This document shows, in pieces, positions 4,000 through 58,610 of a DNA stretch of 64,000 bases. The notes below the pieces were generated by a model. That model did no database searches, was not told the DNA's origin, and saw only the letters and a program-made list of their open reading frames with translations. The stretch is from contig JAEWOE010000001.1 in the NCBI GenBank assembly GCA_023460995.1, forward strand, positions 10,664-74,663, in the 5' to 3' direction. The position numbers and the translations under genes are program-made. Positions within the stretch are counted from its first letter, which is position 1. Every line of letters begins with the position of its first letter. This stretch comes from Bacillota bacterium (lineage in GTDB: Bacteria; Bacillota_I; Bacilli_A; RF39; UBA660).

Positions 4000-4076
4000 G
4001 TTATCATGATACAAAAAGTATTTACAAAAAAAATTTATAAATATATAATTAATATTATTAATGGGGGAAAAATATA

Positions 4077-4630: not shown

Positions 4631-4725
4631 TTACTGAATATAATATATATTATGTTAACTTCTTGAAATAAAAACATTTTGTATATTTAATTAATTATTG
4701 CCAATACTATTATTGGGTGATTAAA

Positions 4726-4941: not shown

Positions 4942-5372
4942 CCCAGAAAGAGACGGCTATTAGCCCCTCTTTTCTTTTTTTCATTTTTAATGACAAAACG
5001 AGATTGAGAACTATGCAACTTTATATATGTCGGTGCACCAGGATGCGCCTTCTTTTTATTATATATATATCGTCTATATATGTAGTATATAACAGTAATT
5101 ATATTATTTTAGTTAATAAGCTTATATTTAGAAAAACTAACGACTTCATGATGTATTATCATTTTAAATATATAAAAAGAAAAAAGGGGACTTCCCCTTT
5201 TTATTTTAATTTATTATATTTTTCATAAAAAATTATTTTTTTACTGATTTAGTTATTCTAATAATTATAAAAAAAAACATATATCATTTCATAATTACTT
5301 TTATAATCAAATATATGTTTATGATAGATATAAAATATTGTAAGGTTGAAATTGTAGTATCTCTCCCCTAGC

Positions 5373-5606
5373 CTATTTTAATTTCTTTTTTTCAAAACCA
5401 TTTTTTCCTAAATCAAAACCGTTTAATTGCATTTTTATAATAATATGATTGATGTCAGTATCTTTTAAACCTAGATTTTTGAAATCTTTTCTTTTTAACA
5501 TGCATATGTCTTTTATCTTGCTTAATTTGTTAGATTTAAGTAACATCTCAATTTCGTTAGAAATATTTAATATTTTAATATCGTCAGTGTTGTACAACGT
5601 ATCCAT
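5373..5606 (-). CDS. small helix-hairpin-helix protein (RNAP alpha-CTD-like fold, tentative)
   Basis: RBS AGGAG 7 nt upstream of the ATG at 5606. Sequence ILNISNEIEMLLKSNKLSKIKDICMLKRKDFKNLGLKDTDINHIIIKMQLNGF resembles HhH / RpoA C-terminal-domain architecture. Lies immediately downstream of the CarD-family gene. Confidence 0.4.
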   Translation of the reverse strand: MDTLYNTDDIKILNISNEIEMLLKSNKLSKIKDICMLKRKDFKNLGLKDTDINHIIIKMQLNGFDLGKNGFEKKKLK

Positions 5607-5632
5607 AATTTTACTCCTGTTATTATCTATAC

Positions 5633-36129: not shown

Positions 36130-36206
36130 TGGTAACTCGTATGGGTTTCGAACCCATGGATACCGCCTTGAGAGGGCGGCGTGTTGAACCCCTTCACCAA
36201 CGAGTC
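36130..36206 (-). tRNA. tRNA-Glu (anticodon CUC by manual fold)
   Basis: Minus-strand cloverleaf: acceptor GACTCGT/ACGAGTT, 3-bp D stem (typical of tRNA-Glu), anticodon stem CCGCC/GGCGG with loop CUCUCAA, T-arm ATGGG-TTCGAAA-CCCAT, encoded CCA. Confidence 0.6.
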
Positions 36207-40468: not shown

Positions 40469-40741
40469 TTATCCATAGTACCTTTGAAAATATATTTCCT
40501 TATCGTCCGAAATAATCTTTATAATATCATCTTCATCTACGTTTATATTATTAGGGTTTAATGGACCAAAACTATAAAAATTCTTTTCATCAAGAATCTT
40601 TTGAGAAATATATATATAATCTTTTTCTTTTAGTATTATATTTAAAGAATAAAATTCCATATTTAGGTTGTATTTTTTATTGTCTTCTGTTCTTACTAAG
40701 TAATCATAATTATTAATTTCTAATATTTGCACTTTTTTCAT
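40469..40741 (-). CDS. hypothetical small protein (90 aa)
   Basis: ATGA start/stop overlap with the upstream LRR gene. No counterpart downstream of LRR copy 1. Confidence 0.3.
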   Translation of the reverse strand: MKKVQILEINNYDYLVRTEDNKKYNLNMEFYSLNIILKEKDYIYISQKILDEKNFYSFGPLNPNNINVDEDDIIKIISDDKEIYFQRYYG

Positions 40742-42431
40742 AAATTTCTCCTTAAAAATTCATTCATTGAATTAGTATTATTTAAAAAGTGGTCACCTGA
40801 TTCAACTAATGATGGTAAATTCACTTTTGTTAGTGAGTTATTCAAAGTTAAAAAATAACTTCCTATTTTAATTAGTGATGGCAAATCTAATTCTGTTAAT
40901 GTTTTATTATAATATAAGAAATAACTTTCTACTTGCTTTAGCACGGGTAAACTTACTTTTGTTAGTGAATTATTCATAGATAGAAAGCGATCTCCTGCTT
41001 GACTTAACATAGGTAAATTTAGTTCTATTAATAATTCATTATCATATAAAAAGCGTTCTCCTACTTTATTTAAAATAGGTAAATTTAATTCTATTAATGA
41101 TTCATTATCGTATAAGAAGCGATCACCTACTTGAATTAGTGATGGCAAACTTAATTTTGTTAATTTTATATTACTTTGCAAGAAGGAGTCTCTCACTTGG
41201 CTTAACATTGGGAGATCTAATTTTGATAATGATTGATTACTATATAAAAAGCAATCTCCTACTTGAATTAGTGATGGCAAATTTAACTTTGTTAATGATT
41301 TATTATCATACAAAAATCGATCTCCGACTTTATACAAGGCTGGTAAACTTAATTCAGTTAATGCATTATTATTCGCCAAAAATGAATCATTCGTTTGTTT
41401 TATTTTATCATTTTTATACCCTATAATTTTATTATCTATATTAACACATATTTCTATAACATTACTATCTTGACCACTTTTTGTCTCAATATATATCACT
41501 TTGTTATTATCTTCTTTTTTTATAACACTTATCTTACTAATATCTTTAATAGCATCTATAAAGCTATCATGTAAGGATGAATCGTAAAGTAGTATTTTTT
41601 TATTTGGAATATCTAATATGAAATAGTCAATAACTATATATTCTCCACCATTAAGATAATCATTTTTAACTTCAAAGTTATCTATAATTATATTGCCAGG
41701 GCAATAATAAATATTGTTTATTTCATAATTATATTTATAATACTTGCCATCATTAGCCCGAACATAGCCGTCAAGTTCAAAACTATACCTACTATTTTTC
41801 AAATTAAATCTATAATAACGAGCAAAACTATCTGATAAACCAAATATTATATTATCTAGATTATTATTAAATGTACTGTCAGGATTGCTTACTGTATGGT
41901 TATACCTATTTTTGATTGACACAGTATTAACCATTCCTCTTGTAAACTGTATACTTATTACAGAAGTGCCATATTCATCTTGTCTTTTAGGACTAGTAAA
42001 GTTTTCTCTTTTTATTTCACTAGCATTCTTTTTTACTGCAAAAAAACATGGCATCGATCTAATCTGTCTCCTCTAAATGTACATAATTGCTCCTCTGGTT
42101 TATAATAACTTTTAAAAGTTTGTATTTCTTCCTCGTTATGGCATTCGTAAAGTATATATCCAGCTTCATCTAACAATTCAAACGGTGTTCTATTTTCAAT
42201 TTTTTTCGCAACTTCTTCTTCACCTACAAGAGTATATATATATTCCTTAAATTCTAATACTAATTCTGATTTACATATATCATCATACAAACTTCTAGAA
42301 TGATAAAAATAGGAATCCAAAAATGAATATAGCACTCCTGGATATTCAAGTATTGTTGGAAATAATTCTTTGCATAAATGCATCATTTTTTCTCCATAAA
42401 ATTTTTTTATCATTTTTAAATCATCAATCAT
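40738..42431 (-). pseudogene. leucine-rich-repeat protein paralogue split by a -1 frameshift in a poly-T (coding-strand T7; T8 in copy 1) tract at 42040-42046
   Basis: ORFs 42033..42431 (N-terminal domain, …DRLDRCHVFLQ*) and 40738..42054 (MPCFFAVKKN…) align collinearly with the single 498-aa paralogue. The only disruption is an A7 vs A8 run on the plus strand. Confidence 0.55.
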
Positions 42432-42560: not shown

Positions 42561-42637
42561 TGGTAGCGACGGAGAGATTCGAACTCACGACCTACCGGGT
42601 ATGAACCGGTTGCTCTAGCCAACTGAGCTACATCGCC
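42561..42637 (-). tRNA. tRNA-Met (CAU anticodon, elongator-type; Ile2-lysidine not excluded)
   Basis: GGCGATG-TA-GCTC-AGTTGGCTA-GAGC-A-ACCGG-TTCATAC-CCGGT-AGGTC-GTGAG-TTCGAAT-CTCTC-CGTCGCT-A-CCA. Strongly resembles Bacillus elongator tRNA-Met. Confidence 0.65.
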
Positions 42638-42755: not shown

Positions 42756-43322
42756 TTAATAATTCTCGCTTAATATTTCAAAATATGATTGAGGATGAGC
42801 ACATACTGGACAAACATTAGGTGCTTTTTTACCAAAATGAACATGTCCGCAATTACGACAGATCCACATTGTTTCTTCTTCTTTTTCAAATACAGTGTTA
42901 CCATCTAAATTAGCAATCATTTTTCTGTATCTTTCTTCATGGCGTTTTTCAATTTCTCCAACACCTTTAAATAAGTTAGCTATTCTAGTGAATCCTTCTG
43001 CTGCAGCTACTTCTGCAAACTCTGCATACATATCTGTCCACTCATAGTTTTCACCAGCTGCAGCATCCTTTAAATTAGTCATTGTGTCAGGCACTTCTCC
43101 ATCATGTAGTGCCTTAAACCATAATTTTGCATGTTCTTTTTCATTTTGTGCTGTTTCTTCAAAAACTGCTGCAATTTGCTCAAAACCTTCCTTTTTAGCT
43201 TTTGAAGCATAATAAGTATATTTATTTCTTGCTTGACTTTCTCCAGCAAAAGCTGCTAATAAATTAGCTTCTGTTTTACTTCCTTTTAATTCCATATTAT
43301 CTAAATTCCTTTCTCTATACAA
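42756..43322 (-). CDS. rbr: rubrerythrin (ferritin-like diiron domain + C-terminal rubredoxin-like CxxC…CxxC)
   Basis: EKHAKLWFK…[14 protein letters not shown]…[29 protein letters not shown]. Confidence 0.9.
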
Positions 43323-43684
43323 TTAGGACATATTCCTTCAAAAACCAAATCTTTTGACATTATCTTATATTTAGTTTCTAATTCTATTTTATCATAAAAT
43401 TCATCTGCAGCACTTATAAAAATATCACTAACTGAGTTACAAGTAATGCATCTTATATGATGATGTGGTTTAATAGTTTTATCAAATCTATCTTGATTAT
43501 TTGATACTCCTATTCTTTTAATATAACCATTATCAGCTAAAGCATTTAAATTACGATAAATTGTGCCTAAACTAATATTAGGTATGATATCTCTTACCCT
43601 ATTATAAATAGTTTCAGCAGTAGGATGATCATATGAATCCATAACTACTTTAAGTACAATATCTCTTTGATATGATTTCTTCAA
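43301..43684 (-). CDS. perR: Fur family transcriptional regulator, PerR-like
   Basis: DNA-binding helix [23 protein letters not shown] metal site, CxxC zinc ribbon. TTG start with RBS GGAGG 7 nt upstream. Overlaps the rubrerythrin gene by 22 nt. Confidence 0.7.
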
Positions 43685-43777: not shown

Positions 43778-44734
43778 TTAATCTGTTTTCTTATTTATTA
43801 TAAATCTTGGCCTAGCTTTAGTTTCGCTATAAGTTTTTCCAACATATTCACCTATTATTCCAATTGAAATCATTTGAAGTCCACCTAGAAACCAAATTGA
43901 AATAGATAAGAACGTCCATCCAGCAACAGTATTGCCAGTTAGTTTTTGAATTAGCGAATATATCATAATAACTAGACTGGTAAATAAAATTATAATTCCT
44001 AAAATACATATAAATCTAAGAGGTCTTACTGTGAACGAAGTAATACCATCTAATGCAAAATTCATCATTTTACTAAGAGAATATTTACTCTTTCCAGCAA
44101 GTCTTTCATTTCTTTCATAATAAACAAAATCATGTTTAAAACCAATTAGAGGAAAAATCCCTCGTAAAAAAAGATTGACTTCCTTATAGTTTTCAAACTC
44201 ATTTATAACTTTTTTACTTGTAAGCCTATAATCAGCATGATCATAAATAATGTTTATTCCCATAAACTTCATTATTTTATAAAATAACCTCGCTGTACTT
44301 TTTTTAAGCCAAGAGTCTTTATCTCTTTTACTTCTAATACCGTATACAATATCATTACCTTGCTTGTATTTTTCTATCATCGCATCTATAGCGTTTATAT
44401 CATCCTGCAAATCTGCATCCATGCTGATTACTATATCGGATTTTATCTTGGCGCTCAGTAATCCCGCTACCAAAGCATTTTGATGACCTGAATTTCTTGA
44501 TAAACTAATTCCTTGAAATAATTTATCTTCTTTATTTATTTTTTCTATTATACTCCATGTTGAATCAATCGAACCATCATCAACGTATAAAACATGACTA
44601 TCTTTGTCTATAATACGACTTTTAATTAACTTACTAATTTTGTTTTTTAGGATTTTGGTAGTTTCTAATAAAACTTTCTCTTCGTTATAACAAGGTATAA
44701 CTAAATATAAGATTATTTTGTTTTCTTTTTTCAC
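43778..44734 (-). CDS. GtrB/CsbB-like family 2 glycosyltransferase (polyprenyl-phosphate sugar synthase) with 2 C-terminal TM helices
   Basis: LVIPCYNEEKVL…VLYVDDGSIDST…SLSRNSGHQNALVAGL and C-terminal membrane helices, typical of bactoprenol glucosyltransferase GtrB / ArnC-like. Confidence 0.75.
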   Translation of the reverse strand: MKKENKIILYLVIPCYNEEKVLLETTKILKNKISKLIKSRIIDKDSHVLYVDDGSIDSTWSIIEKINKEDKLFQGISLSRNSGHQNALVAGLLSAKIKSDIVISMDADLQDDINAIDAMIEKYKQGNDIVYGIRSKRDKDSWLKKSTARLFYKIMKFMGINIIYDHADYRLTSKKVINEFENYKEVNLFLRGIFPLIGFKHDFVYYERNERLAGKSKYSLSKMMNFALDGITSFTVRPLRFICILGIIILFTSLVIMIYSLIQKLTGNTVAGWTFLSISIWFLGGLQMISIGIIGEYVGKTYSETKARPRFIINKKTD

Positions 44735-45282
44735 TTTTTAACACTATAAAATATAGATACTACTTCTGCAAAACCATGTAAGATAGAAGTGTTATTTTTG
44801 ATTGCTATTCCTTTTCCTAATGCTTTACCACCAATAGTTAAAGATGCTACAATCCCTGTAATAACTAAAGTTGTTGGTAAACTTGGAAAATTAAATTTTT
44901 CAGCTACAGATGCTGCGACTATAACTCCAGCAGATCCTGAAATAATGCCGCATATATCACCTACTACATCATTACAAAAAGAAGATACTTTATCAGCATT
45001 TTTAATAAATTTAACAGCTATATCAGCACCTGCTACCTTCTGAGCACTCATAGAATTAAAAGGCCCGATGCTAGCACTTGTTACAGAAACTCCTATCATA
45101 TCGAATAATACACCTAGTAATACAAAAAGTATTAGTACTAATATCCCTATTATCATATTTACATTTGAAAGAATTGTCTCTGAAGCAAATGAAAATGTAA
45201 TAGATATAACAAAAGCAAGTAATGTAATCTTAATTATCCAAGCTGCATTTGAATTTTTCTTTCTCTCTTTTTTCTTTTTCAT
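44731..45282 (-). CDS. 4-TM small membrane protein (possible flippase/accessory partner of the GtrB-like GTs)
   Basis: Basic N-terminus and four hydrophobic helices including a Gly-rich GDICGIISGSAGVIVAA segment. Overlaps the neighbouring gene by 4 nt. No family recognised. Confidence 0.35.
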   Translation of the reverse strand: MKKKKERKKNSNAAWIIKITLLAFVISITFSFASETILSNVNMIIGILVLILFVLLGVLFDMIGVSVTSASIGPFNSMSAQKVAGADIAVKFIKNADKVSSFCNDVVGDICGIISGSAGVIVAASVAEKFNFPSLPTTLVITGIVASLTIGGKALGKGIAIKNNTSILHGFAEVVSIFYSVKK

Positions 45283-45290
45283 ACTACCCT

Positions 45291-46229
45291 CTATTTATTT
45301 TTTTTATTATCAATAATATTCTTTGCTATGTATATTGGTCTTTTTTTAGTTTCAACATATGTTCTTGCAATATATTCACCTAATATACCTAGTGAAAATA
45401 ACTGAAGCCCGCCAAGAAATAATATTAATACTACTATTGTAGCATAACCTGACACTGAAATACCATAGAAAATTTTCTCAAATATTACACTAATTAAGTA
45501 TAAAATAGATAAGATTGAAGAAGTCATACCAATAAATGTTGCCATTCTAAGAGGTGCAGTACTAAACGATACAATACCTTCTATTGCATATTTAAATAAT
45601 TTTGTAAAAGACCAAGTACTGTTTCCATTAGCTCTTTTGCTAACTGTATAAGGCATATAATATGTGTTATATCCCACCCATGAAAATATTCCTTTAGAAA
45701 ATCTAAAATATTCTTTCATTGATAAAATAGAATCAACCATACCTCTTCTAAAAGTTCTAAAGTCACTAGCACCTTGTACAAATCTAGTATCAGACATTTT
45801 ATTCATTATTTTATAAAAACAATCTTTAAAGAAAGTTAATACTTTACCTTCTTTTCTTTTTTCTTGATAAGCTGCTACTGAATCATAATCTTCATTATTA
45901 TCAAGAAATTCAATCATGCTTAAAACTAGTTTAGGATCTTGTTGCATATCGGCATCAATAATTGATACATAATCGCCTATAGACTTCTCAAGTCCAGCGT
46001 ACATAGCCGCTTCTTTACCAAAATTACGTGAAAAATTAATAACCTTGATATTTTCTTTAGAATTCTCACTAAGCTCTTTCAATACTTTAAAAGTATTATC
46101 CTTAGATCCATCATTAATAAAAATCATTTCGTAATCTTTAATTTTTTTAAAATTAGTATGTATACAGTCATATATTAACTCTATATTTTTTTCCTCGTTA
46201 TAACAAGGCACTATAATTGATAATTTCAT
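45291..46229 (-). CDS. second GtrB/CsbB-like family 2 glycosyltransferase
   Basis: LSIIVPCYNEEKNI…MIFINDGSKDNT…NFSRNFGKEAAMYAGL plus 2 C-terminal TM helices. Confidence 0.75.
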   Translation of the reverse strand: MKLSIIVPCYNEEKNIELIYDCIHTNFKKIKDYEMIFINDGSKDNTFKVLKELSENSKENIKVINFSRNFGKEAAMYAGLEKSIGDYVSIIDADMQQDPKLVLSMIEFLDNNEDYDSVAAYQEKRKEGKVLTFFKDCFYKIMNKMSDTRFVQGASDFRTFRRGMVDSILSMKEYFRFSKGIFSWVGYNTYYMPYTVSKRANGNSTWSFTKLFKYAIEGIVSFSTAPLRMATFIGMTSSILSILYLISVIFEKIFYGISVSGYATIVVLILFLGGLQLFSLGILGEYIARTYVETKKRPIYIAKNIIDNKKNK

Positions 46230-46324
46230 CTCTTCACTTCCTTTAAGTCTTGCAATATTATACCACTTATTATATCAAAATAAATTAATAAATTGTAATT
46301 TTTGTGTTTATGAATATCATGCAC

Positions 46325-46352
46325 AAAAAAAGGACAAAACTGTCCTGATTTT
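46325..46352 (-). terminator. rho-independent terminator (minus-strand T7 run)
   Basis: aggaca-aaac-tgtcct hairpin flanked by A7 (plus) / T7 (minus). Confidence 0.45.
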
Positions 46353-47013
46353 TCTGTTGAAATCGATGGCCATAAAACAGTAAACTTTGCGTCTTAGGTC
46401 AAGTTGTATTTCACCAGTTTCTCCATACACGTTACCATGTATGTGGTTCCCCTTTAAAGAAACCGATACGGCGTCGCCTATCCGTACGACTTGATTACCA
46501 CTTAGTACGCACTGCAATCCTGTTATATGAGACACTCTAGGAGATTTCCCCACCAACTGATTCATTATTAATTCTTTTTTGCAAATACAGTTTCAGATTG
46601 CGATTTTCAAATTAGTCTAGCTAAAACTAATTCAAAATGGATCAATCATTCCAAGTAATTCACTCAAGACAAGCTACACTACTCGTAACTTTCGCCACAT
46701 AGTAGGTTTAATCCTAATTCGTAGTAAGTCAGCTCAATATGCAATATATGTATATGCTTACCACAAGTATAGGTCTCCACGAATACAGGGTCATGAGCGC
46801 ATGCCATTGCGGATGCCCAATATTCTATCCTTCAGCATCCACCCCAAACTGGGCGTAAGAAGCAAACACCAAAGGCTTCACAGATATGCTCTTTAATGGT
46901 TTTTTAATCCCATCTTCATAATAAATCTCATTGACTAGAATAATGTGCCAATCAAAATTTACAAGATTAATTCTATCATATTATATGCATGATGTCAAAT
47001 TGCAATGACTACA
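46353..47013. other. GC-rich (about 45% vs about 27% background) non-coding island, 660 bp; candidate structured ncRNA or foreign DNA remnant
   Basis: No ORF longer than 82 codons in any frame. Composition sharply different from the flanks. Lies between the polysaccharide deacetylase gene stop and the 46325 terminator. Confidence 0.3.
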
Positions 47014-48369
47014 TTAATTAGTAATATAACTAGCAAACTCATCTAAAGTAGTATTGTACTGAACTGTATATCTAGGAACAGTATACATATTTACTCCTGG
47101 ATATGCTTTATACATTCCACCAGCAAATGCCATAGTGAATCCAGCTTGCTTAATTAAAGAAATTGCGTAATCATTATATTCATAGAATGGCCAAGCAAAA
47201 TATGTAGTATTATTTAATTGTTCACGACTCTTTTTTAAGTCAGCTAGAACTTTATCTTTATCCGAACATTTAAGTGGACTTCCCTGTCCACCTGAACAAA
47301 CACCAGTATTATGTAAATTATAAGTGTGTGAAGCAAATTGGACATAGTTTGATGATCTTGAATAAGCAAGTATGTCAGCGTTATTTTGTAGATTTCCTAT
47401 AAAGAATAAAGTGACATTAACTTTATACTCATTTGCTAGTGTATACATTCTATCAAACCACCAACCATCATCAACCGTTACTGTTACACTTTTTACTGGA
47501 AGCCTAATTTTACCATTCAAAAATAATTCAAGTTCTTTAAGAGTAGTTGTATAGTATTCATTTTCATTTAAATAATTAAATTGACTCTTAATTTGACTTA
47601 CATCATGGCAAATAATCGTGCTTAAACATTTTTCTCCTGCAGAAGAATCATAAGTATAATGATATGCAATAACAGCTATCTTGCTTGCAGATTTAACATT
47701 TGTATTGTTAGAAGCTTCGACACTAACAGAATCACCTTTTTCTAAATATAATAGTTTATTATCATACTCGACATAATAGCGATTATTATCCTTAATCAAT
47801 ATTGGTAACGATAGTCCTTCATTAATTGTGTATTTTCTTCCACGATCATCATATAAAAATGTCGGACTTGATGACACAACATTTTCATTAAATGGAATAT
47901 ACTTTTTATATCTTTGATCTGTTGATAAAGAGTCAATTACTTTGACATCAGTATACTTAATAAAATAAGCAATGTTTTGAAGTTCAAAATATACATCTTT
48001 ATAGTCTTTAATATCTTTACTTTTCAAGTTAAGTTCTACACCATTTGATATAGTTCCGGCTTCTACATACTCTCCATTAACAAGCTTATATATCTTTGCA
48101 TCATTAGTAGTTACAACAAATGAATTGTAACTATTTTTAATATCTTTTAATATTCTTTGTTGAGTTTGTTTTTCTTTTTCCTCTTGTTGCAATTTAATAT
48201 TATTCTCTTTTTGCTTTTTATTTTTATCTATATTATATATAACACTATAGATGGACACTAATATTATAATTGCAGTAAGCACAAAAAGAAGATGTCTTAA
48301 TGCTTTTTTTCTTCTTTTTTCCCTTTCAATATAATAATTTATAGTTTTTAGTTTATCTTTCTTATTCAA
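47014..48369 (-). CDS. membrane-anchored polysaccharide deacetylase (NodB/CE4 family)
   Basis: N-terminal TM, charged coiled region, C-terminal TVDDGWWFD… and HTYNLH motifs of CE4 deacetylases. Confidence 0.7.
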   Translation of the reverse strand: MNKKDKLKTINYYIEREKRRKKALRHLLFVLTAIIILVSIYSVIYNIDKNKKQKENNIKLQQEEKEKQTQQRILKDIKNSYNSFVVTTNDAKIYKLVNGEYVEAGTISNGVELNLKSKDIKDYKDVYFELQNIAYFIKYTDVKVIDSLSTDQRYKKYIPFNENVVSSSPTFLYDDRGRKYTINEGLSLPILIKDNNRYYVEYDNKLLYLEKGDSVSVEASNNTNVKSASKIAVIAYHYTYDSSAGEKCLSTIICHDVSQIKSQFNYLNENEYYTTTLKELELFLNGKIRLPVKSVTVTVDDGWWFDRMYTLANEYKVNVTLFFIGNLQNNADILAYSRSSNYVQFASHTYNLHNTGVCSGGQGSPLKCSDKDKVLADLKKSREQLNNTTYFAWPFYEYNDYAISLIKQAGFTMAFAGGMYKAYPGVNMYTVPRYTVQYNTTLDEFASYITN

Positions 48370-48442
48370 CTAAATCTCCTCCTATATATTAGTAAAGATT
48401 TATTGTATTAAAATACGCTATTAATTGATAAAGCAAAAACTA

Positions 48443-49258
48443 CTACACTTTATCTATTTTATTATTTTTTTCTGAATTTGAATAGAAATTATTAATAGCT
48501 TTGGCAATAAAAGTCGGCCAAAATTTTTTAAACATAATCAAGTCTTCTTTTGTCCTAATGTTATTATTAATAATTTCAGTTGTCGTAGAATCACTATGAA
48601 TTCTATGTCCCATTAAAGGTATATTTATATATATAAACTTTCCATTTAGTTTTGATAGTCTTTCCCAAGCATACCAATCAACATTACATTTAAATTCACT
48701 CGCAAAAATAGGAAACTTAATTCTATCAACATTAAATGTGACAGCTGGGCAGCAAATTGAATTACCTAGAGATATTACAAGCCTCTTGTTTAATTTTAAG
48801 CCACTAGTTTTGTTTGATTTTAAAGGACTTAGCAATGTTTTCTTTATATTTAAATTACGATTACTATATTCTTTCAAATCATTCTTTATTTCATAACTGC
48901 CAGTAAATAAAATTAATGCGTCATTATTTTTTTCATATTTCTTTACGACTTGATAACTATATTCGTAATCATATATATCATCCTGATGAGCAATAGTAAC
49001 AAGTGGTGTTTTACCACATTTTATTGCAAAATCAAAGTCATTACCTATTCCATTTTGCCCTTTGTTTTCCATTATTTCTAACGAATACTTGCTTGCTAAC
49101 TTCATAATAAATTTATTTGGAGTAGAAGTTGCCATTATAACATTCGACTTGTATTTTTGATTTAAAACTGATTTTATGCATTCTTCTAGATATTCAGATT
49201 CCTTGTATGCCAGAATCACAAATGTATGTATTATATCTTTTTGAACTTTATCTTTCAT
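48443..49258 (-). CDS. glycosyltransferase (GT2-like)
   Basis: HTFVILAYKESEYLEECIKSVLNQKY N-terminus resembles the GT2 nucleotide-binding fold. Confidence 0.5.
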   Translation of the reverse strand: MKDKVQKDIIHTFVILAYKESEYLEECIKSVLNQKYKSNVIMATSTPNKFIMKLASKYSLEIMENKGQNGIGNDFDFAIKCGKTPLVTIAHQDDIYDYEYSYQVVKKYEKNNDALILFTGSYEIKNDLKEYSNRNLNIKKTLLSPLKSNKTSGLKLNKRLVISLGNSICCPAVTFNVDRIKFPIFASEFKCNVDWYAWERLSKLNGKFIYINIPLMGHRIHSDSTTTEIINNNIRTKEDLIMFKKFWPTFIAKAINNFYSNSEKNNKIDKV

Positions 49259-50261
49259 TTTGTTTTACTTTCTTATTATTAATATAGTAATATAAAATTT
49301 GAATATATCTATGAATGTATATGTATATATTAATTGGTAATACATCATATAACTTTTTTTGAATTTTAAAAATTGTGCTTCTTTTAGGTACTATTTTTTT
49401 ATAATCATGCCACGGAGATTTATACAAATATTTATCAAACAAATCGTTTTGAGGATGACAATTTTCTAATTCCCATGGTCTTCCAGTCATTGCTCCCATA
49501 CAATGATTAATTTTAGGTTGCTTCATTCTCAATTTAATTAAATCTAATGGATGAAAAAAAGTTTTATTTAATTTATACATATTAATGCTATTTTTAGCTC
49601 CATATATATAAAAACCACTATTAAAATTATAAGTCAAGTCTAAATATGCAATATTTTTTCTAAAAAGTACATTGATTATATCTTGATCAACAATAAAATA
49701 GCTATTTCTTTTATTCTTCAAATGGTCAACTATTTTTTCTTTGCATTTGTAATCACGCCATTTTTTTTGATCAATAAGTAAAACACCACAATTATAATAT
49801 GGTTCATTTAACGGTATATCTACCATCTTCTTATAATCATTGACTATACAATCATATGTAGCAGCCATTATGTTTCCGTTAAAATTAAAATCACATAGTT
49901 CTGCTAAAGAACCATTAATTATGGTGTCACCATCAAGTTGCAAAATAATGTCGTTATTTGTTTTTATTTCATCAAAAACAAAAAGTTTAAAATATGTTGT
50001 ATATGTTCCTTTATATGGAACTAACTTTAAATCTTTTATTTTTTTAATTATAACATCTGTATCTAGAAAAAATATATCTCGTTTATAACTTTTACACATT
50101 TTTTTCATTTTCATAATATTTTCTTCTTTTATGCCATCATTTAATACAAATATATTTAAAATGTCTATATCTTTATTATTTTCAAGCAATGAAAATATAG
50201 AAACACCAGTTATTGGCGCATACGAATCATTACTTTGATAAAGAACATTTATTTTTTTCAT
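49248..50261 (-). CDS. family 8 glycosyltransferase (LPS/teichoic-type alpha-glycosyltransferase)
   Basis: GT8 motifs: …YFKLFVFDEI…, ILQLDGDTII (DxD), YYNCGVLLID. Confidence 0.7.
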   Translation of the reverse strand: MKKINVLYQSNDSYAPITGVSIFSLLENNKDIDILNIFVLNDGIKEENIMKMKKMCKSYKRDIFFLDTDVIIKKIKDLKLVPYKGTYTTYFKLFVFDEIKTNNDIILQLDGDTIINGSLAELCDFNFNGNIMAATYDCIVNDYKKMVDIPLNEPYYNCGVLLIDQKKWRDYKCKEKIVDHLKNKRNSYFIVDQDIINVLFRKNIAYLDLTYNFNSGFYIYGAKNSINMYKLNKTFFHPLDLIKLRMKQPKINHCMGAMTGRPWELENCHPQNDLFDKYLYKSPWHDYKKIVPKRSTIFKIQKKLYDVLPINIYIYIHRYIQILYYYINNKKVKQNER

Positions 50262-50272
50262 TTTTATACCTC

Positions 50273-51190
50273 CTATAATTTTCCAATCAAAAGTAAAAAC
50301 CTTATTGCAATTTCATCGAAATTAGAATCACTATATTTTTTATAATATAAAGCTTTTTTAAAATTGCTAATTAAATTTCTTGTTGCAAATAGTTGGAAAG
50401 TTTCTTTTGTTTTACTATCCATATCATTACTATATTTTTTATAAAATAACTCTACTGTTTTTTTTATGGGGCTATAATCATCATCAATGATAAATTTCTT
50501 GATTCTTAGAATCTGTCGACTTATAAACCTCTTTTCATATTTTGAAACATTTTTTTCATGTCGTCTATATTTTGCAGAACTTCTCGTATCATAAATTACT
50601 TTTCCAAATGATAAAGCAATCAGATAACACCAATAATCGTGTCCCCATATATTCAAATCTCTCAAGTCCAGATTATCAATATATTTTTTTAAATTGTAGT
50701 TGATAACAGTGTTAAAACCCAATGGGCATTGATTTGCGATAAGTGCTCTTTCTAAATGTGATGGATCATTAATATTTTTAGAGAATTCTAAAGAATTCAA
50801 ATTTTTATCACAAATAAGATAATTAGTAAAGTATAGAATTGGAATATTTTTATTTTGCAAGCTCATTTTTTCTACGGCATAGCTGATTTTATTCACATCC
50901 CAATAATCGTCCTGGTCACAAAAAGCATAATAATCTGCTATATTTGCATTTTTTAAAAGCCACAAAAAACTTTTAAAAAAACCTATGTTCTTTCCATATT
51001 CAACATGCATATTATCATTACAAGTTTGAAATTTTTTTAGTATTTTTATTGTCTCATCAGTTGAACCATCATCACGGACAAGAAGTTCAAAATTTGAATA
51101 ATCTTGGGCGAAAATACTGTTTAACTGCTCTTCAATATATTTTTCACCATTGTAACTTGATAATAAAATTATTACTTTTTTACTTTTCAC
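50273..51190 (-). CDS. family 2 glycosyltransferase (RgpB/WbbL-like rhamnosyltransferase candidate)
   Basis: VIILLSSYNGEKYIEEQLNSIFAQDY…LLVRDDGSTDET, about 305 aa. Confidence 0.65.
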   Translation of the reverse strand: MKSKKVIILLSSYNGEKYIEEQLNSIFAQDYSNFELLVRDDGSTDETIKILKKFQTCNDNMHVEYGKNIGFFKSFLWLLKNANIADYYAFCDQDDYWDVNKISYAVEKMSLQNKNIPILYFTNYLICDKNLNSLEFSKNINDPSHLERALIANQCPLGFNTVINYNLKKYIDNLDLRDLNIWGHDYWCYLIALSFGKVIYDTRSSAKYRRHEKNVSKYEKRFISRQILRIKKFIIDDDYSPIKKTVELFYKKYSNDMDSKTKETFQLFATRNLISNFKKALYYKKYSDSNFDEIAIRFLLLIGKL

Positions 51191-52409
51191 TTTTTGCCAT
51201 CTCCCTTAAAGTCAATAAATACATAAAATAGAATAAAATAAATTGAAATAGCATTAAAAAGCAGAAGCCTATAAATATTCCATTCATTCCATATTTAACT
51301 GATAATAATTGTATTATAATTGTGCCTACTAACAACACCAATAAATATAACACTAATTGAATTGCCATTTTTCTAGCAATAACTAATACATTAGAAAATA
51401 CTGCCGAAAATGAATTAAATGTGCCAGCTAAAATTAAAATAACAAAAGTCATCTTATACTTTTCGAAAGGAATTGCATAAAGTAAACTTAAGACCTTGTC
51501 ACCAATCGTAATAGCAAGTAATGAAGAAAATATACATGATATTGATAAAATAATTATAACTATTCTGATCTCTTTTTTTAATTTCTTTTTATTTTGCTGA
51601 TGATATAAATTTGTAATTGTTATTATTTTTGGTTGTAATATAAATTGACACAATAAGGATATTACTGTCGGGATCATCATCAATATTCCCAAATAACCTA
51701 ACTCTGTCAAAGAAATATTGGAAGTTAGAAATCTTGGAAGATTAAGTATAAATAAAGTCACAAAATTATACAGAAAGATATACTTTGATGTATTATAAAT
51801 ATTAAAATTAAAATCAAATCTAATCTTATTGAATTTTTTAATAATAGTTAAATCAAAAAACAGAAAAACCATAAACGTTGAAAATAAAGCAAGACATGTT
51901 GAGATAATTAAATTTCCAGTTACAACATCGGCAATTACAAAAACAGCTAAGTATGATATCGATTTTATTGTCAAAGATAAACCAACATAATCTAATCTAT
52001 CTTCTTTTTGAAATTGAGCATAAAATACATCACTAAATGTTTCAATAATACGTAATAGCATCAAATTGACCCCAACTATAAAAAATGCACTGTCATAATT
52101 GTTAATAAGAATATATATACACATTATAATCAAAGAAATTACTGAAGTCAAAATTTTTGATGAAAGATATTGATTAAATGAATACTGTTCTTTCACATCA
52201 GTAACTTGATATATTCTTGTTCCATAGTTTGAAACAATCTGTAGAATAAGACTGAATGAAAATAATTGAGAAAATAAACCCGAGCTGTCAACACCATTTT
52301 TTCTTGTAACTATCATCAATAAAAATAATGATAAAAAGGAATTAATAATTGTTCCAATAGCATTCCATATAAACTTTTTTTTACTATTGTTCATCAAATC
52401 AACTCCCAA
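51180..52409 (-). CDS. Wzx-like polysaccharide/oligosaccharide flippase (MOP superfamily)
   Basis: About 12 predicted TM helices. N-terminus KKFIWNAIGTIINSFLSLFLLMIVTR typical of Wzx/GacK-like flippases. Confidence 0.6.
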   Translation of the reverse strand: MGVDLMNNSKKKFIWNAIGTIINSFLSLFLLMIVTRKNGVDSSGLFSQLFSFSLILQIVSNYGTRIYQVTDVKEQYSFNQYLSSKILTSVISLIIMCIYILINNYDSAFFIVGVNLMLLRIIETFSDVFYAQFQKEDRLDYVGLSLTIKSISYLAVFVIADVVTGNLIISTCLALFSTFMVFLFFDLTIIKKFNKIRFDFNFNIYNTSKYIFLYNFVTLFILNLPRFLTSNISLTELGYLGILMMIPTVISLLCQFILQPKIITITNLYHQQNKKKLKKEIRIVIIILSISCIFSSLLAITIGDKVLSLLYAIPFEKYKMTFVILILAGTFNSFSAVFSNVLVIARKMAIQLVLYLLVLLVGTIIIQLLSVKYGMNGIFIGFCFLMLFQFILFYFMYLLTLREMAKSEK

Positions 52410-52500
52410 CTTTTAAAATCAATAATAAACTTTATCATATAAAGGTATTCAGTTTCATTATACCATATAATAATAAAAAAGAGCATTAAAAACGCTCTTT

Positions 52501-54306
52501 TTAAAAATTATTTGTACTAAAGAATTTATCCTTTTTAATAGAGTCTTCCCATTTTTTCATAACATATTCTTGTTCCTTTTTAAATCTTTCTACCTTCTCA
52601 GAAGTAACTTCATATCCTCTTGATTTTGATTCATGGTGATACATAGTCACATAAGATAATTGAACATTATAGTAACCCTTATCTAGCAATTTCAAATTTA
52701 GATCAACATCATTTAAAGCAACTTTTAGCTTTTCATCAAGTCCGCCTACTTCATTAAACTTTTTCCTTGAAACAAGTAAACAAGCAGCAGTTACGGCAGT
52801 ATAATTATAAGGCATGATAAGTCTACCCATCAAACCATTATCATTTTTTTCAGCAGTCACATAAATATGGCCCGCTAATCCTCCATATCCAAGAACTACA
52901 CCAGCATGTTGTACTTTATTGTCTGGATATAATAATTTAATTCCAACAGCGCCAACATGTTTTTGAGAGGCATAACCTACCATTTTATCTAGAAAATCTC
53001 CTTCAATAACTTCAGTATCATTATTTAAAAGTAAAATATAGTCTCCTTTACTTTCTTTTACTCCAATATTATTAATATGTGAATAATTAAATTCACCAGG
53101 AGCTTTTACAACTTTGAAATTACTATGTGCTTTTTTATATTCTTTAAATAAGTCTAATGTACTTTGTTCGTCACTACCATTATCAACAACAATAATTTCG
53201 AAATTTTTATAAGTACATTTGTTATATAAAGAATCGACACATACTTTTAAAACTTTACCATAATTTCTAGTAGGAATAATTATAGAAACAAGGGGATTGT
53301 CATGCTTATAATCAATTAAATAAGTACTAACATTAGGATTATGATAAACTTTACCTTCTATTTTTCTACGCTTAAGTGCATCTTCAAGTGCTTTTATAGA
53401 GGCATCCTTTGTATATTCCTTATTACCTAAATATCCAGCAGTAGATGTAGCAGACATACGCCAGTGATATAATATTTTTTCAATATGATAAATATTATTT
53501 GTTAATTCTGTTACTCTTAAAAATAAGTCATAATCTTGTGAACCATCATATTCACTTCTAAAGCCACCTACTTTATCTACTAAAGATTTTCTTATGGTAG
53601 TTAAATGGCATATATAGTTGACTGCCATAAAAGTATCTGGAGAATAATCAGGTTTAAAATGTGGTTCTAATCTTTTACCACTATAATCTAATTTATCTTC
53701 ATCTGAATAAATGAAATCTAATTTTTTATTTTTATTTAAAGCTTCTACTACAAAATACATTGCATCCTTAGATATGGTATCATCATTATCAACAAGCATA
53801 ATGAATTCACCTGTAGCAATTTCTATAGCAGAATTAGATGCTTTAGAAATCATTCCATTTTTCTTGCGATAAATCACTTTTATTCTTGAATCTTTTGTCT
53901 CATATTCCCTTAATGTTTCTTTTGTCTCTTCACTAGGTGAGTTATCATCTGCTATGCATATTTCAAAATTCGTATATGTTTGATTTAAGACAGAGTCTAA
54001 ACATTCACTTAGTAATTTCTTGCTAACATTATATACAGGTATAATAACAGATATTTTAGGATTATACTTGAACTTCTTGTGTTCAAAGTCAAACTCATTT
54101 TCTTCTACCCATTTTAAATAAGCTTTTTGATTAACAAATAAATTGGCTGTATTACCGTTATTTCTTTTTAAAACTCTAAAGAATGATTTTATATAATTCT
54201 TCATTGCTCTAGGAGGTATTAAAAAATGATGTCTATGCCATGCAAAGTAAATTGACTTTTTTACTAACCTAAATACTTTCTCAAATTTTGAAAAAACTTT
54301 TTTCAT
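52501..54306 (-). CDS. two-domain family 2 glycosyltransferase (RgpF/GacG-like)
   Basis: Two GT2 folds: VIIPVYNVSKKLLSECLDSVLNQTY…ADDNS and SIIIPTRNYGKVLKVCVDSLYNK…VVDNGSDE. Confidence 0.7.
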   Translation of the reverse strand: MKKVFSKFEKVFRLVKKSIYFAWHRHHFLIPPRAMKNYIKSFFRVLKRNNGNTANLFVNQKAYLKWVEENEFDFEHKKFKYNPKISVIIPVYNVSKKLLSECLDSVLNQTYTNFEICIADDNSPSEETKETLREYETKDSRIKVIYRKKNGMISKASNSAIEIATGEFIMLVDNDDTISKDAMYFVVEALNKNKKLDFIYSDEDKLDYSGKRLEPHFKPDYSPDTFMAVNYICHLTTIRKSLVDKVGGFRSEYDGSQDYDLFLRVTELTNNIYHIEKILYHWRMSATSTAGYLGNKEYTKDASIKALEDALKRRKIEGKVYHNPNVSTYLIDYKHDNPLVSIIIPTRNYGKVLKVCVDSLYNKCTYKNFEIIVVDNGSDEQSTLDLFKEYKKAHSNFKVVKAPGEFNYSHINNIGVKESKGDYILLLNNDTEVIEGDFLDKMVGYASQKHVGAVGIKLLYPDNKVQHAGVVLGYGGLAGHIYVTAEKNDNGLMGRLIMPYNYTAVTAACLLVSRKKFNEVGGLDEKLKVALNDVDLNLKLLDKGYYNVQLSYVTMYHHESKSRGYEVTSEKVERFKKEQEYVMKKWEDSIKKDKFFSTNNF

Positions 54307-54314
54307 TATTACAC

Positions 54315-56378
54315 CTAACTTTCAATTTTATAAATATACATACCATCTTCTTCATATAATAATTCAAATTTTATTAAATCGTTTTGATATGAACTTATAT
54401 CTTCTTGTGACACTATATAATTAGCATCTAATAACATTATATCATCAATATTTAAATTTACATTAAATTTATCATTTTCTGTTAGCTCAAAACTACTATT
54501 ATTATTTGTCAGAGTAATAGTTATGTGAGCATATCTATTATAGATATACTCGTAATTACCCTTTTGATCTAATTTGTGCCATAGTTCCAAATTTGGATAA
54601 TAGTTAACTGAATTAATAGTTTTAGCTCCATTAGCTACTAAGTAGTTTGGTACAGCAAAATGTGAATTAACAACTAGCCAACTTTTGCTAGAATCCTCTT
54701 TTACTATCTTTTGAATTTCTTTGGCAAAAGGTTTCTCAGTTAATACATCTAAGCCTTTATTAATTGGATTTACAGTACCTCCTATATATAATGATAGAAT
54801 TATAAGAATTACTGCCAAACATTTATTAGTTTTTTTATTATTAATCATTATTAATACCATTAATGGTATTAATATAATAAGTGTTGTAATAATCATCCAC
54901 ATATTTAGATAATTACTTAATATCTGATAACCAATATAAATAGTAAGTATCATAATAAATACTGATAAAATAATAGAAAAATTTATTTTTTTAAGTTTTA
55001 GTGCTTCCTTATCTTCATGCATACTTAATATTCTTATTAATAAAAGAACGCAAATAAAACCAACAACTATATTAGCTCTCTCAGGAATAGAGAATGATAT
55101 TAATGAAATTTTAGCTATTATATCTGGCAATTCTATATAATTCCATAGTGATAATAATATGGCACAAATACTAAATATTATTAAATATAAATCTTTATTC
55201 TTTTTTACAATTATGTAGTATAAAGACATTATTATTGGAACCGGATAAAAAGATAAAAAATTACTCATTTCAGATGGATTATGATAACTAATAATTGGAA
55301 AGAATATACTTGCGAAATAATCAAACAATAAGTTATATCCATATCCACCAGTAGAAAACCTTTTGCCAGGATATACAGTACTAGTAACAGTATTATATAT
55401 ATCCAATGAATTGCTAAATACAATCATGGCTATTGTAATAATAATTAAAAAAGATAGTATTAAATAAAGTAAATCGCTCCATTTTATTTTTGTCTTATTT
55501 TCAATTAATATCCATATAACAAAACAAAGAAATACATATCCATATGTTACTTGCCAAGCTGGATACAAAACAAATACATAGTTTAATCCAACTATTGCTA
55601 ACAATACTGATAAAATTAGTTTATAAACTATTTTATTGCAATTAATAAATTTATGTATAATCAAAATAGCAAGTGGCCCATAGGCTAATATAGCCAGATT
55701 ATTGCAATACCACCACATATTTGCAGCTGAAAAAGTAACTAACACCGTTCCAAGAAGAGAATAAACTTTTTTATTTTTTGTAATAATCATAAAAAGTTCA
55801 AACCATGCAAAGAAAATTACAAATAATTTTCCAAACCACATAAGAGCAAATGCATTTTCAAACGGTAATAGTAAAAATGGCAGATTAAATATGTTACAAA
55901 TAATAGAAATATCGAATGCAGGTAAAGACGGGTATAAAGTAACATTAGAACTAATCCCCATTATAGTATTATTTGTAGTAGAAAATCCATTATAGACTTG
56001 TGATAAAGCGTTTGGTGTATTTACGATCCATTCATCGCTTCTAATTCCCCTAGCCATTCCTAATACTACATCATAATTATCTGTATTTGGTTGTACAATT
56101 CTGTTCCAAAAAGCAACCGATGACCCGTTATATCCTAGAATAGTAATATATGATAAAAGAATAATACCAATAAGATAACGATTTTTGTATATAAATTCAT
56201 AAATCTTTCTTATATCAATAACAAAATGCAATGCTACAAATATGATACTAAAAGAACAAATAAATAGTAAATCATAAGAAAAACTAACAAAGCTTGTGTA
56301 TTTTATAACTAAAAAAAGAATAAAGTACATGATAATTATAGCAATTAAACTCATAATTATTTTAATTTTATTCTTCAT
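54315..56378 (-). CDS. large polytopic membrane protein (about 15 TM + C-terminal extracytoplasmic domain); candidate GT-C-fold glycosyltransferase/polymer-modifying enzyme
   Basis: 687 aa, highly hydrophobic. C-terminal soluble about 150 aa. Genomic context next to polyprenol-P-sugar pathway genes. Confidence 0.4.
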   Translation of the reverse strand: MKNKIKIIMSLIAIIIMYFILFLVIKYTSFVSFSYDLLFICSFSIIFVALHFVIDIRKIYEFIYKNRYLIGIILLSYITILGYNGSSVAFWNRIVQPNTDNYDVVLGMARGIRSDEWIVNTPNALSQVYNGFSTTNNTIMGISSNVTLYPSLPAFDISIICNIFNLPFLLLPFENAFALMWFGKLFVIFFAWFELFMIITKNKKVYSLLGTVLVTFSAANMWWYCNNLAILAYGPLAILIIHKFINCNKIVYKLILSVLLAIVGLNYVFVLYPAWQVTYGYVFLCFVIWILIENKTKIKWSDLLYLILSFLIIITIAMIVFSNSLDIYNTVTSTVYPGKRFSTGGYGYNLLFDYFASIFFPIISYHNPSEMSNFLSFYPVPIIMSLYYIIVKKNKDLYLIIFSICAILLSLWNYIELPDIIAKISLISFSIPERANIVVGFICVLLLIRILSMHEDKEALKLKKINFSIILSVFIMILTIYIGYQILSNYLNMWMIITTLIILIPLMVLIMINNKKTNKCLAVILIILSLYIGGTVNPINKGLDVLTEKPFAKEIQKIVKEDSSKSWLVVNSHFAVPNYLVANGAKTINSVNYYPNLELWHKLDQKGNYEYIYNRYAHITITLTNNNSSFELTENDKFNVNLNIDDIMLLDANYIVSQEDISSYQNDLIKFELLYEEDGMYIYKIES

Positions 56379-56390
56379 AAATCCTCCTAA

Positions 56391-57530
56391 TTATTTAAAC
56401 ACTTTTTCGTATTTATTAACTATATACTCCCAAGTATATTCATCCTTTATTCTTTTCTTAGCCAATTTACCTTTTTCTTTTCTTATCGATTTTAAATATT
56501 CCTCTTTATTTATTATTTTTGTTAAAGAGTTTTCATTATAAAAATATAAACAGCTGTTTAATCCTACTTGGTGATTGAAATTAACATCATATAATATATT
56601 AAGTTCGGTTAAACTAAGTGCTTCAAGTAAAGATGGGTTTGTACCGCCCACTGAATGTCCATGAATATATGCAAAAGCATTTTTTCTTATTGCGCTAAGT
56701 TTAACTTCATCATATATACCTGGTAATATGCATATTCTTGGGTCAGAATCCGAATTAGTTATAGATTTTAATTCTTCATAGTATTTGTTACCTTGAATAT
56801 TAGAAATAATTATAAGTTTTTTATTTGTTTTTGAATTCATAAACTCTTTTATAATTAATTCAAAATTATTTTCTGGGACACATCTACCAACTACTAAATA
56901 ATAATCATTCTTTTTTAATGAATATTCATTTAAAATAATTTTCTCATCTACATTATTCAAATCAACTACCTTAGTGCCATAAGCTATAAAAGTTTTAGGA
57001 ACTTTATTATCAGGATATTGTTCTTCTAAATAGGTTTTAATTCCTTTAGAATCACATATTATTCCGTCACAATGTTTAGTCATTGTCCTTTCAGAATATT
57101 TAAAGCAAAATTTAATGAATTTATTCCATTTTGATCTTTTCCATTCAAGACCATCTGGATTAACATACACTTTAATTTTATGTTTCTTTAAATATGGTTC
57201 AGAAAAACCTAAAACTGGTCCCAATCTCAAACCTAATATATAAATTATTGGATTTTCTATATTATTAACTCTTATATAATTTTTTACATACCTAAAAGCT
57301 GCTAATGCGTTAAGAAACATAGTTGCATTGCCTATCTTTTTTGTATATATAGGCAAGCAATTAATTTCATTTTTTTTATAGTTTTTATCTTCTTTATTAA
57401 AAGTTAATTCACTAACATATATATTTGCTTTTGATTTGTCATAAAAGTCACATAAGTTTTTAACAAAAGTCTCCCAACCACCATAATTTTTATTATAACC
57501 CTGGCTTCCAATTATAAAAATATTTTTCAT
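56391..57530 (-). CDS. DUF1972 + GT1/GT4 glycosyltransferase (RgpA/GacB-like first rhamnosyltransferase candidate)
   Basis: N-terminus MKNIFIIGSQGYNKNYGGWETFVKNL matches the DUF1972 signature as recalled. C-terminal GT1 domain (…ICILPGIYDE…HGHSVGGTNPSLLEA). Confidence 0.6.
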   Translation of the reverse strand: MKNIFIIGSQGYNKNYGGWETFVKNLCDFYDKSKANIYVSELTFNKEDKNYKKNEINCLPIYTKKIGNATMFLNALAAFRYVKNYIRVNNIENPIIYILGLRLGPVLGFSEPYLKKHKIKVYVNPDGLEWKRSKWNKFIKFCFKYSERTMTKHCDGIICDSKGIKTYLEEQYPDNKVPKTFIAYGTKVVDLNNVDEKIILNEYSLKKNDYYLVVGRCVPENNFELIIKEFMNSKTNKKLIIISNIQGNKYYEELKSITNSDSDPRICILPGIYDEVKLSAIRKNAFAYIHGHSVGGTNPSLLEALSLTELNILYDVNFNHQVGLNSCLYFYNENSLTKIINKEEYLKSIRKEKGKLAKKRIKDEYTWEYIVNKYEKVFK

Positions 57531-57534
57531 GCTG

Positions 57535-57879
57535 TCATCTCCTGCCTTGCTTTTCTTTAATTTTTTCTTTAATTATCGCAAGTTCTTGAGCAAGCTCTAT
57601 AATTTTTTCTTGTTGCTCAGAAATTATTTTGCTATTTCTAAAACAAATAAATAATAAAAAAATTATACAAAATACAAATAGTAATGATGGCGGATAGTCT
57701 ATTCCAAGAAATCCTGCAATATTATCTATTGCATAAGGCCAAATAGCTAATATAATCATTATTATTGAAGCTATTACCCACCAAAAACTTTCTTTAATTG
57801 AAAATTTCTTTTTCCTTATGACATGGAAGACATAAAAGCAAGAAAAAATAGCCAATATTACAAAATATATATTGTTCAC
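57535..57879 (-). CDS. DUF2304-like small membrane protein (GacJ-like GT2 accessory)
   Basis: 114 aa, 3-4 TM, coiled C-terminus. Overlaps the GT2 gene by 4 nt. Confidence 0.5.
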   Translation of the reverse strand: MNNIYFVILAIFSCFYVFHVIRKKKFSIKESFWWVIASIIMIILAIWPYAIDNIAGFLGIDYPPSLLFVFCIIFLLFICFRNSKIISEQQEKIIELAQELAIIKEKIKEKQGRR

Positions 57880-58610
57880 TTTTTAAGTCCCCCTCTCTTA
57901 CTACCAGTATTTTGGATAACAATGAAAGCAATTATGTAAAACATATTTATCATATACTTTATAGGTTTAATAATGCCCCCATGCATACTTTCTCCTGCTT
58001 CTCTTAAGCGCATTTTCACAGGAATTTCCTTAATTTTATAATTTGATAACAGCATTTCAATTACAAGATTTGCATCCGGAAACTCGGGATATTGTCCCAT
58101 TTTTGCATATCTTTCTATTACTTTTTTATTTAAGCATTGAAATCCAGAAAGTGGATCAGCAATTGTTTGATGGCAAAAGAATTTAATTAGATGTTCAAAT
58201 ATTTTGGTCCCTAATCTTCGAAAAAAAGGGCAAGGATAACCTGTATTAACCAAATATCGAGAACCAATAACAATATCTACATCTTCTTTTATCATAGCCC
58301 TATACAATTTTTCTGCTTCCTTTGCAATATGCTGACCATCAGCATCAAATTGTATAACATAGTCATAATTGTTTTGATATGCATATTTAATACCTGTTTG
58401 TACGGCCCAAGCATACCTCAAATTAAATATTCCTGTTATACACTTAACTCCTTCAGATTCTACAATTTCTTTAGTATTATCCTTTGAACAATCATTAATG
58501 ACTAAAATATCTGCGAATGGTGCATCCTTTTTTATTTCTTGTAAAACTTTTCTTATATTCTCAGATTCATTGTACGCAGGAATTATAAATAATACCTTTT
58601 CTTTTTTCAT
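57876..58610 (-). CDS. soluble family 2 glycosyltransferase (GacI-like polyprenol-phosphate sugar synthase)
   Basis: LFIIPAYNESENIRKVL…ILVINDCSKDNT…VIQFDADGQH, about 244 aa without TM. Confidence 0.7.
   Translation of the reverse strand: MKKEKVLFIIPAYNESENIRKVLQEIKKDAPFADILVINDCSKDNTKEIVESEGVKCITGIFNLRYAWAVQTGIKYAYQNNYDYVIQFDADGQHIAKEAEKLYRAMIKEDVDIVIGSRYLVNTGYPCPFFRRLGTKIFEHLIKFFCHQTIADPLSGFQCLNKKVIERYAKMGQYPEFPDANLVIEMLLSNYKIKEIPVKMRLREAGESMHGGIIKPIKYMINMFYIIAFIVIQNTGSKRGGLKK

Follow-up and report, generated by a model that had tools for sequence, protein, structure and literature searches.

A gene for OLE RNA, a non-coding RNA of ~600 nt, almost certainly occupies positions 46350-46967 on the minus strand of the window (the whole 64-kb stretch of DNA that was analysed), with a sigma-70 promoter of its own and an intrinsic terminator at its end (Table 1). 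OLE stands for Ornate Large Extremophilic RNA, which is found in anaerobic or extremophilic Bacillota. The Rfam 15 scan matched family RF01071 (377.6 bits; gathering score 50; E 2.2e-107) over positions 1-616 of the 616-position model without truncation, and this was the single strong non-tRNA match in the 64-kb window. A permissive scan of positions 46100-47300 (E<=1) returned no other RNA family beyond a sub-threshold isrD. The latter match (21.3 vs 37 bits) sits on the terminator hairpin and was dismissed as a generic hairpin. A previous sequence-only reading had flagged a non-coding island at 46353-47013 and offered a structured ncRNA, on no named strand, as one of its explanations, which proved correct. 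Its by-eye search for RNase P, tmRNA, SRP, T-box and group II signatures was right in that no such family matched, but OLE was not among the families checked. The Rfam scan, which it had named beforehand as a refuting test, identifies a known element, and novelty is lost: the RNA is real, not new, and belongs to an already known family.

Table 1. Features at and around the OLE RNA gene (window coordinates).
Feature	Position	Strand	Description
OLE RNA gene (ole), full-length type	46350-46967	-	Rfam RF01071 match, 618 nt
ole promoter	46998-46970	-	-35 TTGACA at 46998-46993, 17-nt spacer, TG-extended -10 TGATAGAAT at 46978-46970
Intrinsic terminator AGGACAGUUUUGUCCU + U7	46346-46325	-	Stem 46346-46331, T-run to 46325; directly after the OLE 3' end
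A-rich hairpin loop UUAAAAAA	46907-46900	-	Assigned here to P4 (A-A dimer bridge B1)
Loop ACGCCCAGU	46856-46848	-	Assigned to P5.1; GCC/GGC complementarity with the P6.1 loop
Loop CAAUGGCAUG	46809-46800	-	Assigned to P6.1; GCC/GGC complementarity with the P5.1 loop
P9.3 terminal loop with palindrome AGCU	46623-46618	-	Candidate symmetric intermolecular kissing loop, bridge B3
P13 hairpin tip G[GCGA]C	46478-46473	-	GNRA tetraloop, putative primary OapB-binding site
Polysaccharide deacetylase	47014-48369	-	PF01522, 1.4e-14; immediately upstream of ole
First GT2 glycosyltransferase, PgfS/ArnC-like polyprenyl-phosphate sugar synthase type	45291-46229	-	Between ole and oapA
oapA (OLE-associated protein A), 183 aa	44731-45282	-	Motif, fold and linkage
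Second PgfS/ArnC-like GT2	43778-44734	-	Overlaps the oapA stop by 4 nt (Pfam, NCBIfam)
perR	43301-43684	-	Conserved downstream neighbour of oapA in the lineage
Rubrerythrin (rbr)	42756-43322	-	Conserved downstream neighbour of oapA in the lineage

Related loci, designated L001 onwards, were fetched with the 183-aa OapA protein as the query. The nearest come from gut MAGs assigned to Bacillota, Bacilli, Mycoplasmatota or Candidatus Aphodoplasma. Full-length OLE with scores of 350-483 bits lies upstream of the OapA homologue in 13 loci (L002, L003, L005, L006, L007, L010, L011, L012, L013, L017, L018, L019 and L020), and the copy in L009 is truncated at its 5' end by the end of the contig. In 14 loci, whose OapA identities span 44-95%, OLE occupies the same place with respect to oapA, and every locus with enough upstream sequence pairs OLE with a downstream OapA homologue except L004, in which GT4-GT2-PMT_2 (GT-C type) genes lie upstream of oapA (L004:45-3443) and no OLE was found in 3.4 kb of upstream sequence. 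OLE hosts are Bacillota that are typically anaerobes or extremophiles; here, the related loci are from Bacillota, and PerR and rubrerythrin, both characteristic of anaerobes, are encoded in the window.

The base composition of the element had been the first sign of it. The 618-nt OLE segment has a GC content of 38.0%, compared with 26.3% on average for the window (sd 3.0% for 618-nt windows; z = 3.9), and 0.09% of sliding 618-nt windows are as GC-rich, with a window-wide maximum of 38.7% for the one starting at 46321. The GC jump reported by the sequence-only reading is accordingly real, no other stretch of this size in the window being as rich in GC, but its value of ~45% was overstated, as 46353-47013 has 37.4% and the highest 200-nt value within the island is 42.5%. 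Such an excess, 12 points above the background, might be read as the trace of a degraded foreign insertion (IS, prophage or rRNA fragment), as that reading had also proposed. However, the excess ends exactly at the boundaries of the structured RNA; OLE is the only Rfam family above threshold, with no rRNA, intron or other mobile-element RNA; the stretch contains no credible ORF; and the element recurs in related genomes at the same position, mentioned above, with its own conserved promoter and terminator. We thus consider a foreign insertion vanishingly improbable and ascribe the GC content of the OLE segment to conserved G/C-containing helices and loops, of which it is a by-product in a genome of ~26% GC; a foreign origin is not indicated. 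As had been stated, the longest ORF inside the stretch has 82 codons (46317-46565, minus strand), and the flanks are indeed the deacetylase stop and a minus-strand terminator. This ORF was rejected as a protein gene, as it lies wholly within conserved RNA helices and straddles the terminator.

Ten OLE copies were aligned, namely those of the window, L013, L002, L003, L007, L005, L010, L006, L012 and L011, with the relatives' copies being 68-98% identical to that of the window. A structure check on homologous regions, as formerly suggested, speaks for a structured RNA: the RNAalifold consensus of the ten copies comprises 174 pairs, 72 of which are retained through changes on both sides, and has a covariation term of -18.9 kcal/mol. 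Helix P1 was recovered at alignment columns 18-22/631-635, linking the 5' and 3' ends, and P3 at columns 27-34/450-457, enclosing the central domain. The hairpins at columns 203-269 and 275-311 and the long stem at 318-415, which we assigned to P7-P9, are all present. The window copy, which has P7 and P8 and aligns over the whole model, therefore belongs to the full-length type. It has a ~17-nt insertion in the loop of the hairpin assigned to P7 (~46730-46750), which is shared by the nearer relatives, and one 4-bp hairpin that the Rfam consensus has at model positions 424-435 is missing from it (region 46533-46541 of the window). Among the ten aligned copies, only that of L012 has this hairpin; the other nine share its loss, those with canonical ole-oapA adjacency among them.

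The loops that would mediate dimerisation are retained in the window copy at the level of sequence. The UAAAA of the A-rich loop is invariant in the ten sequences; its assignment to P4 was deduced from published text descriptions, in which an A-rich loop forms the A-A bridge B1 of the dimer (PMC12265935, PMC12286853). Equally invariant (10/10) are the loops assigned to P5.1 and P6.1, whose complementary GCC/GGC motifs are kissing-loop partners in the OLE dimer (PMC12265935). The P9.3 palindrome is AGCU in the window, L013, L002, L003, L007 and L005, GGCC in L010, L006 and L012, and GUAC in L011. These changes are the same covariation as described in PMC12286853, where palindrome-to-palindrome replacement was used to argue for a symmetric intermolecular kissing loop.

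[quoted passage not shown] The P13 loop is GAAA, GAGA, GUGA or GCAA in the relatives and conforms to GNRA in all ten sequences, with a bulged G below it in the RNAalifold structure. The P14.1 tetraloop is likewise GNRA throughout, while its sequence varies among the aligned copies. An alternative k-turn flanking P5 serves OapC (YbxF) in OLE RNAs, and the nucleotides that flank P5 and might contribute to such a k-turn, UGAAG of J4a/5 and GCUG after P5, are present and invariant as sequence. In nine small ORFs of the 64-kb window, a Pfam search yielded no convincing OapB or OapC, with neither an L7Ae-type domain (OapC/YbxF) nor a KOW domain (OapB).

The hexamers of the ole promoter match the consensus at 11 of 12 positions, in addition to the TG extension (-10 TAGAAT), which makes it the best site in 45200-48500, and its -10 element ends 3 nt upstream of the Rfam match. 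The motif is kept in seven of the nine aligned relatives (L013, L002, L003, L007, L005, L010 and L012), with TTTACA instead of TTGACA as the -35 in L012, and the promoter regions of L006 and L011 do not align. The terminator scan found two sites versus 0.4 expected, and the ole terminator hairpin and T-run are kept in L013, L002, L003, L007 and L005, with compensatory changes in the stem. Because its own promoter and its own terminator are both conserved, ole looks like a self-contained gene in the window's lineage, and, given the terminator and the intervening gene, the usual inference of co-transcription with oapA does not apply. In L005 and L007, the terminator after OLE is retained though oapA begins within 52-84 nt (L005:1441-1525, L007:3668-3720); in these two loci, oapA might depend for its expression on read-through or on a very short promoter.

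The element is located upstream of GT2-oapA-GT2 on the same strand, and it has been speculated that OLE RNAs act as ribozymes (PMC11332333), which might suggest a cis-regulatory leader (riboswitch or T-box) of the downstream glycosyltransferase operon or a self-splicing intron or ribozyme remnant, the last of which had been put forward by the sequence-only reading. Against this, no intron, ribozyme, riboswitch or T-box family was matched at E<=1 in 46100-47300, and the RNA ends in a constitutive-looking terminator, after which the first GT2 gene has its own extended -10, TGGTATAAT, at 46265-46257. Moreover, position, promoter and terminator are conserved in relatives, and in ten more distant ones OLE directly precedes oapA, with gaps of 16-104 nt and without the GT2 gene. 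We hence regard a leader or intron as improbable as a foreign insertion, and the stand-alone OLE gene was retained.

In the window, oapA begins 1067 nt downstream of ole on the same strand, with one GT2 gene in between. The distance is ~1.07-1.1 kb in the window, L013-L015, L002 and L003, and a GT2 gene is present between ole and oapA at the window's position only in L013-L016, L001, L002 and L003. A recent tandem duplication of the GT2 gene as the event that split ole from oapA was discarded, as the two GT2 proteins flanking oapA are only 32% identical to each other. In L006 (L006:2835-6001), four genes separate ole and oapA, which encode an unknown 477-aa protein, a GT2 and two EamA-like proteins (113 and 114 aa).

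This separation by a gene and a terminator, together with the deletion of the small consensus hairpin, could be taken to indicate a decaying or orphaned OLE gene that was uncoupled from oapA by the GT2 insertion and is no longer functional. We consider this very unlikely, since the whole model is covered, with every conserved block and loop determinant intact; the promoter and terminator are conserved; and the hairpin deletion, as mentioned, is also found in copies with canonical adjacency. In addition, the split arrangement persists across relatives at 83-95% OapA identity, among which OLE is 94-98% identical, above the flanking spacer. The present alignment thus points toward purifying selection on OLE, and the copy in the window is probably functional.

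The gene backbone of the lineage consists of cell-wall polysaccharide/teichoic-acid genes, ole, oapA, perR and rbr; in L017 and L019, glyA and folD come next. The order oapA-perR-rbr is found in L005, L008, L017 and L019, with one gene interposed in L002, and ole-oapA lies at the downstream end of a wall polysaccharide/teichoic-acid cluster in the window, L013, L017 and L019. The distant relative L020 has the classic oapA-nusB-xseA-xseB context. Since genes for building the cell wall already figure among those recorded as accompanying ole (PMC12265935), the splitting of ole and oapA by the GT2 gene was regarded as a local rearrangement that is only modestly interesting. What is mildly unusual is solely that ole-oapA is interleaved with envelope-glycosylation genes.

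The 183-aa protein had no family match above threshold in Pfam or NCBIfam, and its identification as OapA, a predicted four-helix membrane protein, is supported by its motif and its modelled fold. OapA proteins are small, cross the membrane with four helices and carry a cluster of basic residues on the cytoplasmic side. The protein of the window has a basic N-terminus (MKKKKERKK) and a DxxxD motif (DVVGD, residues 105-109), of which D105, G108 and D109 are invariant in 32 homologues. DxxxD is a criterion for OapA and is absent from CNNM domains (PMC11332333). The AF2 model (pLDDT 79.9) shows long helices at 11-39, 43-69, 96-130 and 134-162, and ranks 1-5 of the Foldseek search of the PDB with this model were CorB (7M1T, 7M1U) and CorC (7CFF), with a probability of 0.99-1.00 and a TM score of ~0.5. 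The structure 7M1U, among these best five, has also been reported as the top structural match of H. halodurans OapA. The fold thus matches the transmembrane domains of the MpfA/CorB/CorC CNNM transporters, and the CNNM family PF01595 gave a sub-threshold score of 18.9 bits (gathering score 28.4, E 1.3e-3). In contrast to the CNNM Mg2+ transporters, however, the protein has no CBS or CorC_HlyC domains and does have DxxxD, which makes it an OapA rather than an MpfA-type transporter. According to Block et al. 2011, as cited in PMC12265935, OapA binds OLE RNA as a dimer and localises the RNA to the membrane.

The first GT2 protein matches Pfam PF00535 (1.8e-29) and reaches 304.9 bits for NCBIfam PgfS, whose cut-off is 500, and 149 bits for an ArnC-like family. 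On the other side of ole, the deacetylase closes a ~17-kb glycosyltransferase cluster, with the GT-rich cluster at 48443-62251, and a homologous deacetylase domain is found upstream of ole in L019. The polysaccharide cluster also includes, at 54315-57879, a 687-aa DUF7657+DUF7654 protein, a DUF1972 protein and a DUF2304 membrane protein, and large ORFs without a family match are located at 51180-52409 and 58607-60448.

Downstream of oapA, the rubrerythrin ORF shares 22 nt with that of perR because it was extended to a TTG start. The true rubrerythrin start is probably further downstream, judging from a relative's call of 179 aa versus 188 aa here. Two tRNA genes on the minus strand (42564-42637 and 36133-36206; 65.9 and 57.9 bits) follow, and the same two tRNAs are found downstream of perR-rbr in L013, L001 and L002, which confirms synteny. 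Also downstream of the ole region, 40738-42054 encodes a 438-aa protein with BspA-type leucine-rich repeats, which are typical of host-associated bacteria. Elsewhere, an AT-rich stretch of ~1.75 kb (3883-5632) has no ORF of at least 100 codons on either strand and no Rfam match, and a repeat scan of it gave only weak AT-rich repeats.

The mechanism that may be proposed for this RNA is carried over from the OLE RNAs of H. halodurans and Clostridium as regards fold, dimerisation, membrane and stress steps, with dimerisation, OapA-dependent membrane association and stress adaptation described in PMC12265935 and PMC12286853. By analogy, the RNA would have two domains, with the long-range helices P1 and P3 closing them, and would dimerise via the A-rich loop, the complementary kissing-loop pair and the palindromic P9.3 loop. 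The four-helix OapA, encoded 1.07 kb downstream, would anchor it to the cell membrane, where P3 might span the bilayer, and the resulting ribonucleoprotein would help cells to cope with stresses. The stresses concerned in H. halodurans comprise cold, short-chain alcohols, excess Mg2+ and poor carbon sources.

A PgfS/ArnC-like GT2 gene occurs between or directly beside ole/oapA in the window's clade, L006 and L004. It is conceivable, but a long shot, that, in this gut Bacillota lineage, ole-oapA has a functional connection with envelope glycosylation that depends on polyprenyl phosphate. Were this more than locus shuffling, the OLE ribonucleoprotein might sense or regulate the use of the undecaprenyl-phosphate lipid carrier or envelope glycosylation, in keeping with the isoprenoid and cell-wall genes with which ole is known to be associated.

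The main value of the present analysis lies in annotation, as it explains a 0.6-kb island and an unannotated 183-aa ORF two genes away. OLE is an important unsolved RNA, proposed to be an integral-membrane RNA of unknown biochemistry, and what is known about it is unchanged by the window copy. Natural variants of the arrangement, with an independent promoter and terminator, oapA set apart and glycosylation genes interleaved, add a small piece of comparative evidence.

OLE RNA (Puerta-Fernandez et al. 2006) is known from work on Halalkalibacterium halodurans, Clostridium acetobutylicum and C. botulinum. OLE variants 1 and 2 come from two gut clades with reduced genomes, TANB77 and RF39 (Fernando & Breaker 2024, PMC11332333). 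They have shortened or missing P7, P8 and P9, with P7 and P8 absent in variant 2 and shortened in variant 1, which often also lacks the OapB site (PMC11332333). The window copy resembles these variants in its hosts, which are uncultured low-GC gut Bacillota known from metagenome assemblies, but differs from them in that it spans the whole model and keeps the hairpins assigned to P7-P9 and the P13 GNRA loop. As a large, highly structured ncRNA of unknown biochemical function, it is further comparable to GOLLD, ROOL, HEARO and raiA. Some of these RNAs form homo-oligomers. Unlike OLE, they have no oapA linkage, and none of them was matched in the Rfam scan.

With the characterised OLE RNAs, the window copy shares the length of ~600 nt, the whole-model match, the conserved blocks and the domain closure by P1 and P3, as well as the dimerisation loops, the GNRA OapB site, the same-strand linkage to oapA and an anaerobic Bacillota host. 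The classic ole cluster contains isoprenoid, DNA-repair and translation genes, whereas the context in the window is envelope polysaccharide/glycosylation and perR-rbr. Finally, the ole gene of H. halodurans is transcribed within a single long polycistronic RNA and has oapA as its immediate neighbour (PMC12265935), whereas the window ole has, as judged from its sequence signals, a promoter and a terminator of its own, and a GT2 gene before oapA.
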